Positions 30,001-33,000 of a DNA stretch of 64,000 nt are shown piece after piece. Position 1 is the stretch's first letter. Every line of letters starts with the position of its first letter. The position numbers were made by a program. This DNA comes from Escherichia coli O157:H7 (GTDB taxonomy: Bacteria > Pseudomonadota > Gammaproteobacteria > Enterobacterales > Enterobacteriaceae). Location: assembly GCF_013167455.1 (NCBI RefSeq), contig NZ_CP038328.1, one strand, 5' to 3'.

Positions 30001-33000
30001 TGGAGATGAGCGTGGAGTCCATAATGATCCTGTTTGTACTGTCTTTTTATAATTAGTATGGAAAAGGTAACTCACATTGCGTCGATCTATAAACGAACCT
30101 TATGAGACTACCTCGACAGAGCGCATCTGCAAATGATTTTATGGCTGATTAACGGCAACATGAAAAATTCGCTGGAAGATGAAAGCGCAGGAGTTGCTGG
30201 TGTTGTTTAAGGATTAAGCAGAGGCCCCACAGGTTCGAGATATGAAACATAAAAGTCCGCATATGCACAAAATTGCACCCTGATGATTCTGATAGACTGC
30301 ATTGCATTATAACCAGTAGGGAGGCGAGGTTAGTTATGTTTTTAGTATCATTGTTGAGACGTATTGCATTTAGTTACTACGATTATAAAGCTTATAATTT
30401 CAATATTGAAAAAACAGACTTTGTTGTCATCCATATTCCCGATCAGATTGGCGATGCTATGGCCATCTTTCCTGTTATTCGGGCGCTTGAATTGCATAAA
30501 ATTAAGCATCTATTAATTGTTACGTCGACAATTAATTTAGAAGTCTTTAATGCGCTCAAACTTGAACTGAACCGCCCCGGGTTTCCTGGAGAGTGTTTTA
30601 TCTGTGAACTCAGGCTGCCAGATCATCGTTTCCGATGGAAGCATAATAAGCTTTTTCTGCTTCTGCCGGAGGAGTATGGCCCAGCCTTCCCAGCAATCGT
30701 CGATTGTTATACCAGTCCACCCACGTTAGTGTGGCCAGTTCCACTTCTGCACGGTTTTTCCAGCTCTTACGGTGTATTACCTCCGCTTTGTAAAGACCAT
30801 TGATGCTCTCAGCCATCGCGTTGTCATACGAGTCGCCTGTACTCCCTGTTGATGCCAGTAATCCGGCTTCTTTTAGTCGCTCCGTATAGGCCAGTGACAC
30901 ATACTGAGAGCCTTTATCGCTGTGATGGATGGTGCCAGACGGACGACGGGCCCACAACGCCTGCTCCAGCGCATCCAGCACGAATGTCGTTTCCATAGAC
31001 GATGAGACCCGCCACCCCACGATGTATCCGGCAAACACATCAATGATAAACGCCACATAGACGAAGCCCTGCCATGTGCTGACGTAAGTAAAATCAGCCA
31101 CCCACAGCTGGTCAGGTCGTTCTGCCACGAACTGACGGTTTACGCGGTCGCCTGCGGCAACGGCTTTCCGGCTGATGGTCGTACGGACCTTTTTACCCCG
31201 GAGAACACCGGCAAGTCCCATAACCGCCATGAGACGTGCCACTGTACATCTGGCCACCCTGATTCCTTCCCGTAACAACTGACGCCAGACTTTACGCACA
31301 CCGTACACCTGATGATTTTCATCGTATACGCGCTGTATCTCTCTCTTCAGCCAGTCGTCGTGCTGCGCACGGGCACTGCGTTTATCCGGATGATGTCGCT
31401 GTTGCTGACAATGGTAATACGTTGACGGGGCAATATGCAGTTCGCTGCATACCGGTCCGACCCCGTACTGCTCACGCAGCTTATCCAGCAGTGGCATCAT
31501 TTTTTCCAGAGGCGGTCGAACTCCGCCTTCGCAAAATAAGCGGAAGCCTGGCGAAGGATATCGTTACTGCGGCGCAGTTCACGATTTTCACGTTCCAGCT
31601 CTTTCAGACGCTGACGTTCAGCGCTGGTGAGCCCACCATCACCGCCCCCGGTATCCCGCTCATGCTGGCGAACCCAGACACGCAGAGTCTCCGGCGTACA
31701 GCCAATCTTTGGGGCAATGGAACAAATTGCCGCCCACTGTGAGTCATATTCATCCTGACTTTCCAGAACCATACGAATCGCCCGCTGACGGACTTCGGGG
31801 GAAAAACGAGTATTTTTAGTCATCCTGTTTACCTCTTTCTCAGGGAGTTTAGTCTCCAGGATTTCCGGGGCGGTTCAAACAGACTAAATTAACATTAGTC
31901 ACAATGACTATGCAGGATCACGCAACATTAAAAGAAATAAAAGATTTAGCGAAGAACATAACACAGCAATACGGTACGCCGGATCTTTGTATAGAGGCGA
32001 TGCGTAAAAAGAACCTGAAAACGATGTTATTTATCAGTCAGTTGAAAGCAAAAACGAATTTTCAGGTTGTTGGTTTAACCATGAAGTGCTATTCCCCTGT
32101 GTGTAAGAACGCGTCCCGGATGGATCAGAAACTCCGGGCTCCCGTACCCATGACATGGGCATTTATGATGCGTGAGGCGGGTTTTCCAGCAGTCAGGCCA
32201 ATATATGAATTGCCACTAAGTGAGGATGTACTCGATGAGGTGCGCGAGGAAATGCGATCGTTAGGATCTTACATTGCGCTTAATTTAGAAGGTAGCTCGC
32301 AGGATCGTACATTTTCACTATCGATTGCAGAAAATCTAATAGAAAAAATTCAAAGTGAAACAGATATACCAATAGTGATCGTTCATGGACCAAAAGGGGA
32401 AGATAAAGCCAGGGTATTAGTGGATTGTTATAATAATGTCTACCGTTTATCCTTATCACCCTCGATTAAACGTTCAGCAGCAATCATAAAAGATGCTTAT
32501 ATCGCAATAACTCCTGACACCTCAATATTACATATGGCAAGTGCCTATAATACCCCCGTTGTTGCAATTTATGCTGATTACAAAACGCGATGGCCCGCAA
32601 TGGCCGATGTTTCGGAGTCAGTCGTCGTTGGGCAAAAAATTGACAATATAAGTCTGGATGAATTCGCAAAGGCATTAAAAAGTGTTTTGGCGAGAATATG
32701 AGACAGTACTTATGCATAGTAATGCCGATCTGTTATGAACGGTGGTGTCATCAATACTCTGAGGCTGGTCAATCATCACAGAAAACCAGCCTTTGGATAA
32801 AAGCTGTACTCACCGGATACGATCATAGTCACATCGAACGCGATTCTTGCGGTATCGCATTTTTATTTATTCATTTTCTGTGAGAGAAGGGCAAGCTCTA
32901 TAGAGGGAATGTAAAAAAGAGTGCCCCGAATGGAGCACTCTTTAAGAAATTATAACGGAAAATCAGAGGTTTTTATAACATGTCGCATAAGCAAACCCAA

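Follow-up and report, generated by a model that had tools for sequence, protein, structure and literature searches.

An IS629 insertion in an otherwise intact yeeL, encoding a predicted GT9 glycosyltransferase, in a strain of Escherichia coli O157:H7

Anatomy of the split yeeL gene

In the E. coli O157:H7 genome studied here (contig NZ_CP038328.1 of assembly GCF_013167455.1), yeeL is located between the divergently oriented shiA and the convergently oriented yeeJ. Within the window, i.e. the whole 64,000-nucleotide stretch of this contig that was analysed and to which all positions refer, the gene extends on the plus strand from its ATG at 30336 to a TGA stop codon ending at 32701 (30336–32701), with a Shine–Dalgarno-like GAGG located 6 nucleotides 5' of the ATG, and is split into two fragments by an IS629 element. 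The 5' fragment (30336..30567, plus strand) comprises codons 1–77 and the first base of codon 78, is 100% identical to nucleotides 1–232 of the intact O157:H7 allele and includes the invariant G39–D40 motif, which corresponds to the catalytic position Asp13 of WaaC. The 3' fragment (31881..32701, plus strand) runs from the second base of codon 78 to the stop codon and codes for the remainder of the N-terminal domain as well as the entire C-terminal nucleotide-sugar-binding domain (with R220, D290, T291 and H295); inside it, a mechanically called ORF of 265 amino acids starts at Met86 (31904–32701, plus strand). A promoter scan of the region gave no promoter signal above background.

The inserted element (30568..31877, minus strand; 1,310 bp, IS3 family) is bounded by TGAACCGCCCCGG at its start and by the reverse complement of this sequence at its end, its terminal inverted repeats being imperfect overall but without a mismatch in the first 13 positions. 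Its orfA (31497..31823, minus strand; 108 amino acids with an HTH_Tnp_1 domain) overlaps orfB (30610..31500, minus strand; 296 amino acids with HTH_21 and the rve integrase core, i.e. the DDE domain), so that the transposase is read antisense to yeeL and in the same direction as shiA. The element is flanked by two copies of the 3-bp target-site duplication AAC, at 30565..30567 on the left and 31878..31880 on the right. A length of approximately 1.3 kb, inverted repeats, an orfA with a helix–turn–helix domain, an orfB with a DDE rve domain, a programmed frameshift and a 3-bp duplication all place it in the IS629/IS1203 group. In RefSeq, copies of 100% identity carry the annotation ‘IS3-like element IS1203 family transposase, programmed frameshift’ (WP_171877072.1), a transposase that also occurs in other O157:H7 and O111 genomes. 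The name IS629 is a fair one, since Rump et al. (PMC3271280) describe IS1203 as an isoform of IS629 to which subtype I, the main IS629 subtype of O157:H7, is most closely related, and report target duplications of 3–4 bp for IS629.

Four copies of IS629, all 100% identical to each other, are present in the 64-kb window. Such repeats can be misplaced by an assembler, and the interruption of yeeL could in this case be an artefact, as might also be suspected from the fact that the IS629 junctions in yeeL and in cbl recur in no other complete genome. Each of the four copies, however, is bordered by its own 3-bp duplication (CAC, TTC, AAC and TAC), which supports real individual transposition events rather than misassembly, and the copy in yeeL has exact IS ends and a perfect duplication, with its excision restoring the reference allele to the base. 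Because misassembly would not create a duplication, we regard an artefact as very improbable.

When 30336–30567 is joined to 31881–32701, i.e. when the IS element and one AAC are removed, a sequence of 1,053 nucleotides is obtained that consists of 350 codons plus stop, and this reconstructed frame shows no internal stop, no frameshift and no other lesion. The first-pass annotation, which had proposed a continuous ORF of about 350 amino acids and had named additional frameshifts as the observation that would speak against it, was accurate to the base. The reconstruction is identical over 1,053 of 1,053 nucleotides to an intact annotated CDS of O157:H7 strain PV15-279, and this base-for-base identity rules out a chance ORF.

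The intact allele, the K-12 lesion and further insertions at the locus

The same protein is annotated as WP_000480501.1 (‘glycosyltransferase family 9 protein’) in the O157:H7 strains F3113 and 644-PT8, and 598 records match the reconstructed gene with at least 99% identity. Our data thus show that the pre-insertion allele is the standard intact O157:H7 allele. In other words, the intact immediate ancestor that had initially been postulated can be directly observed, since the identical uninterrupted sequence is present in other O157:H7 genomes. The further proposal that this strain would offer a cleaner ancestral sequence than K-12 holds in the sense that the intact allele is real, but it brings no new information, as intact yeeL is the majority state and already annotated; annotated undisrupted copies are available from hundreds of sister strains and from thousands of E. 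coli, and nothing has been newly recovered.

In K-12 MG1655, yeeL (b4497, 2052276–2053328) is indeed annotated as a pseudogene, as the first-pass annotation had stated. It does not, however, consist of the ‘fragments’ mentioned there, but is a single entry with the same 1,053 nucleotides, which carries one nonsense codon. Nucleotide identity between the K-12 and O157 genes is 97.2%, with 29 differing positions and no indels, which result in 12 amino acid substitutions and the nonsense mutation Q235* (CAA to TAA in codon 235). The K-12 derivative J53 has a copy identical to that of K-12, for which PGAP notes an ‘internal stop’. With a megablast search using a 55-mer with the stop codon at its centre, which seeds only if the T is present, the K-12-type stop allele was found in 771 of 5,426 complete genomes (765 perfect matches). 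These include K-12 derivatives, the B-lineage strains B95.deltaA and ATCC 11303, as well as human and animal isolates. Since the stop allele is that widespread and also occurs in wild isolates, the K-12 lesion is an inherited lineage polymorphism and not a laboratory artefact.

The insertion found here, by contrast, is private to its strain lineage as far as the 5,426 complete genomes are concerned: 54-mers spanning each IS629–yeeL junction with 27 nucleotides per side had a full-length match in none of them, for either junction. Similarly, the cbl::IS629 junction from the window is absent from the complete RefSeq genomes searched. Being private, i.e. absent from this collection, the yeeL insertion is probably also recent. 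Two O157:H7 strains, ECP19-598 and G5295, seemed to share it according to BLAST (100%/100%), but these matches were joined pieces. String checks and re-alignment showed that the site used here is empty in both strains; there, IS629 is instead inserted behind nucleotide 113 of yeeL and flanked by a duplication of 3 bp. Nor is the same configuration found in O111, O103, F3113 or XPFI. In O111, IS1203 is located at approximately nucleotide 793 of yeeL, the 3' end of which is lost such that the IS abuts a foreign MobA/MobL fragment; in F3113, the IS resides in the shiA–yeeL spacer; and in XPFI and O103:H2 12009, as well as in 644-PT8 and 180-PT54, it is yeeJ that is hit. The insertions in the window, in ECP19-598/G5295 and in O111 are therefore independent events.

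With at least three different insertion points of IS629/IS1203 within 1 kb of yeeL and further insertions in the shiA–yeeL spacer and in yeeJ, the interval from shiA to yeeJ might be an IS629 hot spot, or loss of yeeL might be selected, in which case the hits would not be independent neutral accidents. However, IS629 is so abundant in these lineages (17–38 places per genome, four copies in the window alone) that several chance hits in a non-essential region are to be expected, which makes a hot spot or selection unlikely. That yeeL and its surroundings are repeatedly and independently hit by IS elements is to be read against the expectation for such IS-rich genomes.

How far, then, is yeeL itself maintained? 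A match to yeeL is present in 5,267 of the 5,426 complete genomes, and in 4,940 a single locus covers at least 80% of the gene; when the stop allele is subtracted from these 80%-complete copies, at most about 77% of the genomes have an intact gene. An evenly spaced sample of 40 rows of these matches contained two IS1 insertions, one copy that is 1 bp short and three partial copies, so the true intact share is perhaps 70–75% of complete genomes. Intact yeeL is thus the majority state in E. coli. At the protein level, a cluster of 350-amino-acid YeeL sequences has 10,923 members, and several large clusters consist of ‘partial’ Shigella sonnei proteins. For four E. coli alleles, and with the small counts that these provide, Nei–Gojobori dN/dS is approximately 0.2 for yeeL versus 0.09 for shiA, which is consistent with weak purifying selection.

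Some of these numbers could also mean that yeeL is dispensable and slowly decaying across E. coli, with the IS629 hit being neutral and ‘intact’ describing a reading frame rather than a function. The frequency of the stop allele in K-12 and B derivatives as well as wild isolates, the independent IS hits at nucleotides 113, 232 and around 793, the IS1-interrupted, shortened and partial copies in the sample, the Shigella sonnei clusters, a dN/dS above that of shiA and the use of yeeL as a neutral integration site in K-12 engineering would all fit with such decay. On the other hand, about three quarters of complete genomes have a full-length yeeL that lacks the K-12 stop, full-length orthologues with invariant catalytic-site residues occur in five genera, and the dN/dS ratio is well below 1. 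Slow neutral decay therefore seems possible to us but doubtful, and a private knockout of an intact gene remains our preferred reading.

Family, fold and putative role of YeeL

The reconstructed protein had been described as heptosyltransferase-like, and this description stands at the level of the GT9 family, to which PF01075, profile comparison and fold all point, but not at that of the individual heptosyltransferases. PF01075 is matched with 30.0 bits (gathering threshold 22; E = 4e-7) by residues 207–321, i.e. in the C-terminal half only. Scores against the NCBIfam models for heptosyltransferases I, II and III (TIGR02193, TIGR02195 and TIGR02201) amount to 39.7, 19.5 and 17.3 bits, in comparison with cut-offs of 185.3, 134.6 and 170.2, and NF007742 (RfaQ) is matched with 15.9 bits versus a cut-off of 467. 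The label ‘heptosyltransferase’ should therefore be understood as a family- and fold-level assignment.

A search of PDB sequences with YeeL as a single sequence gave no match; with a family profile, however, 3TOV was matched at E = 3e-14 over positions 27–322, as were WaaC and WaaF, for which hhalign gave probabilities of 95.4% and 95.8%, respectively. Homologues of 346–370 amino acids were found in E. coli, E. albertii, Pseudocitrobacter, Erwinia and Rosenbergiella (counted here as five genera), and an exhaustive homologue search with a limit of E ≤ 1e-3 yielded 517 representatives, the full-length ones among them reaching down to approximately 25% identity. In a 36-sequence alignment, the reconstructed YeeL can be aligned with the intact homologues over its entire length; it shares their start and is not truncated, in line with the initial proposal. 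Positions G39, D40, N212, P289, D290, T291, H295, S298 and A299 are invariant in this alignment.

An AlphaFold2 model computed from the family alignment (pLDDT 94.6, pTM 0.92) predicts a two-domain alpha/beta protein, for which the ten best Foldseek matches include 3TOV, 1PSW, 2GT1, 2H1H, 2H1F and 6DFE along with the GT9-like PnsB1 (9GRX), with TM scores of 0.64–0.72. Together, alignment and model indicate that YeeL is a structurally complete, divergent member of GT9 with a predicted GT-B fold. In WaaC, Asp13 is the catalytic residue, and Lys192, Asp261 and His266 bind heptose hydroxyls and the pyrophosphate (bioRxiv 10.1101/2021.06.16.448588). In the hhalign columns, these residues correspond to D40, R220, D290 and H295 of YeeL, respectively. 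The putative donor site therefore differs by a nearly invariant Arg220 in place of Lys192, and WaaC E222 aligns with G250 of YeeL, an assignment that is ambiguous as E251 is directly adjacent.

As to a biological role, no functional study of yeeL was found in full-text literature searches, in which the gene appears solely as a locus for neutral integration in K-12 engineering or as a map landmark or position. Gene neighbourhoods provide some orientation. Pseudocitrobacter has kept the gene order amn–shiA–yeeL–mtfA, though without yeeJ, and the orthologue in Erwinia and Rosenbergiella is located downstream of an MFS transporter gene with no adhesin neighbour. More distant relatives with 34–36% identity reside in clusters together with WaaL-like Wzy_C proteins, GT2 and GT4 transferases, a second GT9 protein and a Bac_transf initiating transferase, and one relative is a Wzy_C–GT9 fusion (the relatives P0110 and P0143, which are on contigs too short for this purpose, were left out). 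This points to a contribution of the wider family to the synthesis of lipid-linked envelope glycans of the LPS-core type. On the basis of fold, conserved active-site residues and these neighbourhoods of distant relatives, intact YeeL is most likely a cytoplasmic GT-B/GT9 glycosyltransferase predicted to transfer a sugar onto a lipid-linked glycan of the cell envelope, for instance the LPS core, with a donor that may plausibly be heptose from ADP-heptose.

In E. coli, yeeL adjoins yeeJ, which encodes an inverse-autotransporter adhesin, and YeeL belongs to a heptosyltransferase-related family; it might therefore be thought of as a dedicated glycosyltransferase of YeeJ in the manner of Aah or TibC. 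We find this scarcely credible, however. The two genes are convergent rather than co-transcribed, a yeeJ-like neighbour is missing in Pseudocitrobacter, Erwinia and Rosenbergiella, and the distant relatives of YeeL occur in clusters of the LPS/O-antigen type. Moreover, the TibC structure appears neither among the PDB sequence and profile matches nor among the top 50 fold matches of YeeL. Orientation, non-conserved synteny and a lack of similarity to TibC led us to discard an autotransporter heptosyltransferase of the Aah/TibC type.

Consequences of the insertion and comparison with known systems

Overall, what is seen in the window is best explained by a simple copy-in event in which IS629 inserted behind nucleotide 232 of yeeL, i.e. 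in codon 78, and generated the usual 3-bp target duplication. In the YeeL model, codon 78 falls into a loop between the strands 58–64 and 80–86 of the N-terminal Rossmann-like domain. Thus placed, the element cuts off the N-terminal segment, which carries Asp40 as the putative catalytic residue, from both the remaining acceptor domain and the complete donor-binding domain. The 5' fragment retains D40 but little else, and the 3' fragment, when read from Met86, lacks the first beta-alpha-beta unit along with the catalytic aspartate. With Asp40 separated from the donor-binding domain, neither fragment should be active, and we infer from alignment and model a complete loss of YeeL function. Taken as a whole, a private IS629 knockout of the intact O157:H7 yeeL gene, encoding a predicted GT9 glycosyltransferase, is the explanation to which we assign a probability of roughly 0.93.

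Against the predicted enzymatic role of YeeL speak the weak Pfam match, the scores below the heptosyltransferase cut-offs, the arginine in place of Lys192, the ambiguous counterpart of Glu222 and a location outside of the waa cluster. Given this location and the frequent inactivation in nature, yeeL may contribute little to fitness. Going beyond mere dispensability, YeeL could be an orphan GT9 transferase acting on an envelope glycan of the LPS-core type, the loss of which has been repeatedly selected in E. coli lineages. A nonsense allele common to K-12 and B, several independent insertions of IS629 and IS1 in EHEC and the truncated genes of Shigella would be in line with such selection, which nevertheless seems to us quite improbable. 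If it did operate, the product of YeeL might be a target of phages or the immune system, and the insertion in the window would represent a further case of convergent adaptive inactivation.

What the insertion means for this strain is modest. The strain has lost yeeL through IS629, probably very recently, which alone is of little significance, as this is an ordinary strain-specific IS629 knockout of an already annotated gene. It also becomes clear that the lesion of the K-12 ‘pseudogene’ lies in a single codon and that most E. coli have an intact gene that is conserved and structurally sound. Outside of the K-12/B lineage, yeeL should not be handled as a generic pseudogene. The private IS629 junctions in yeeL and cbl could be used as strain-typing markers, as is done in IS-printing. 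Of mild interest is also that the gene of an uncharacterized but well-conserved GT9 enzyme has been inactivated repeatedly and independently.

In comparison with known systems, the element itself is a standard copy of IS629/IS1203 at a new site, with nothing notable that would distinguish it from the reference. The O157:H7 allele encoding WP_000480501.1 occupies the same locus (shiA–yeeL–yeeJ), and it is the window copy alone that is split after nucleotide 232 by IS629 and a 3-bp duplication. The yeeL::IS629 of ECP19-598 and G5295 and the yeeL::IS1203 of O111 also have the gene interrupted by this IS in the orientation seen here, but differ in their insertion points, whereas K-12 b4497 shares locus and length with O157 yeeL but is inactivated by a nonsense codon without any IS. 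At the level of the protein, WaaC (HepI), WaaF (HepII) and 3TOV resemble the predicted YeeL structure in their two-domain GT-B fold (TM score approximately 0.7), and their N-terminal G–D motif with the catalytic aspartate as well as their D-T-x-x-x-H donor-site motif are kept in YeeL. YeeL differs from these three proteins, however, by sharing just 12–17% identity with them, by an N-terminal extension of approximately 27 residues and by its arginine at the position of Lys192, and, unlike the LPS heptosyltransferase genes, yeeL resides outside of the waa cluster.

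IS629 copies in the window and an interrupted cbl gene

Four copies of IS629, each of 1,310 bp and mutually 100% identical, are located in the window at 10656-11965, 21724-23033, 30568-31877 and 59664-60973, with the 3-bp target duplications CAC, TTC, AAC and TAC, respectively, and this local density of 4 per 64 kb is unusually high. The second copy lies inside cbl (21441-23704), which encodes a CysB-like regulator and adjoins nac, and interrupts this gene past approximately nt 284 of 951, whereas cbl is intact in the O157 strain 644-PT8. Because the cbl::IS629 junction is missing from all 5,426 complete genomes searched, this interruption represents a second private knockout of the window strain. 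Around the first copy (8691-11965), an approximately 1.7-kb indel also distinguishes the window strain from 644-PT8. At this site, IS629 abuts a 540-codon ORF (9010-10632, minus strand), i.e. the counterpart of a TonB-dependent receptor gene, which in 644-PT8 is a mere short pseudogene fragment.

YeeL variants and distant relatives

The GT9-family glycosyltransferase gene yeeL (30336-32701) is split by the third IS629 copy. With seven non-synonymous differences and a single synonymous one, the O157 allele is distinct from that of strain XPFI. A common E. coli variant of YeeL (cluster P0012 and about 20 other clusters) has a length of 346 residues owing to an in-frame deletion of four residues (VLDE, residues ~194-197), which falls in a surface helix. 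Distant relatives with 25-36% identity (in loci L017, 5750-11405; L018, 6939-11490; and L019, 1955-4288) adjoin genes for WaaL-like Wzy_C proteins, GT2/GT4 genes and a second GT9 gene, and one of them, a protein of 777 aa, carries a fused Wzy_C domain. Together, these neighbours and the fusion hint at a context of LPS core or O-antigen ligation for the wider YeeL family.

The shiA-yeeL-yeeJ interval

The transposase genes of the IS629 copy in yeeL share their direction with the divergently oriented shiA (30022-28706, minus strand). In the region 30023-31877, read-out transcription from IS629 could proceed through the 5' fragment of yeeL and the spacer and enter shiA. IS629/IS1203 has also inserted independently in other strains, each time at another point of the locus: in ECP19-598 (L001, 2050-3359) after nt 113 of yeeL, in O111:NM 08-4377 (L005, 3730-5039) at approximately nt 793, with the 3' end of yeeL and yeeJ lost, and in F3113 (L007, 2826-4135) in the shiA-yeeL spacer. 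The shiA-yeeL-yeeJ interval may be a regional target for IS629. The convergent yeeJ (32963-41020, minus strand), which encodes an inverse autotransporter adhesin, carries internal repeats that are roughly 790 bp long and approximately 85% identical. In the window it is whole, i.e. a single unbroken ORF of about 2,685 codons, whereas in 644-PT8, 180-PT54, PV15-279, O103:H2 12009 and others it is either split by IS629 or truncated.
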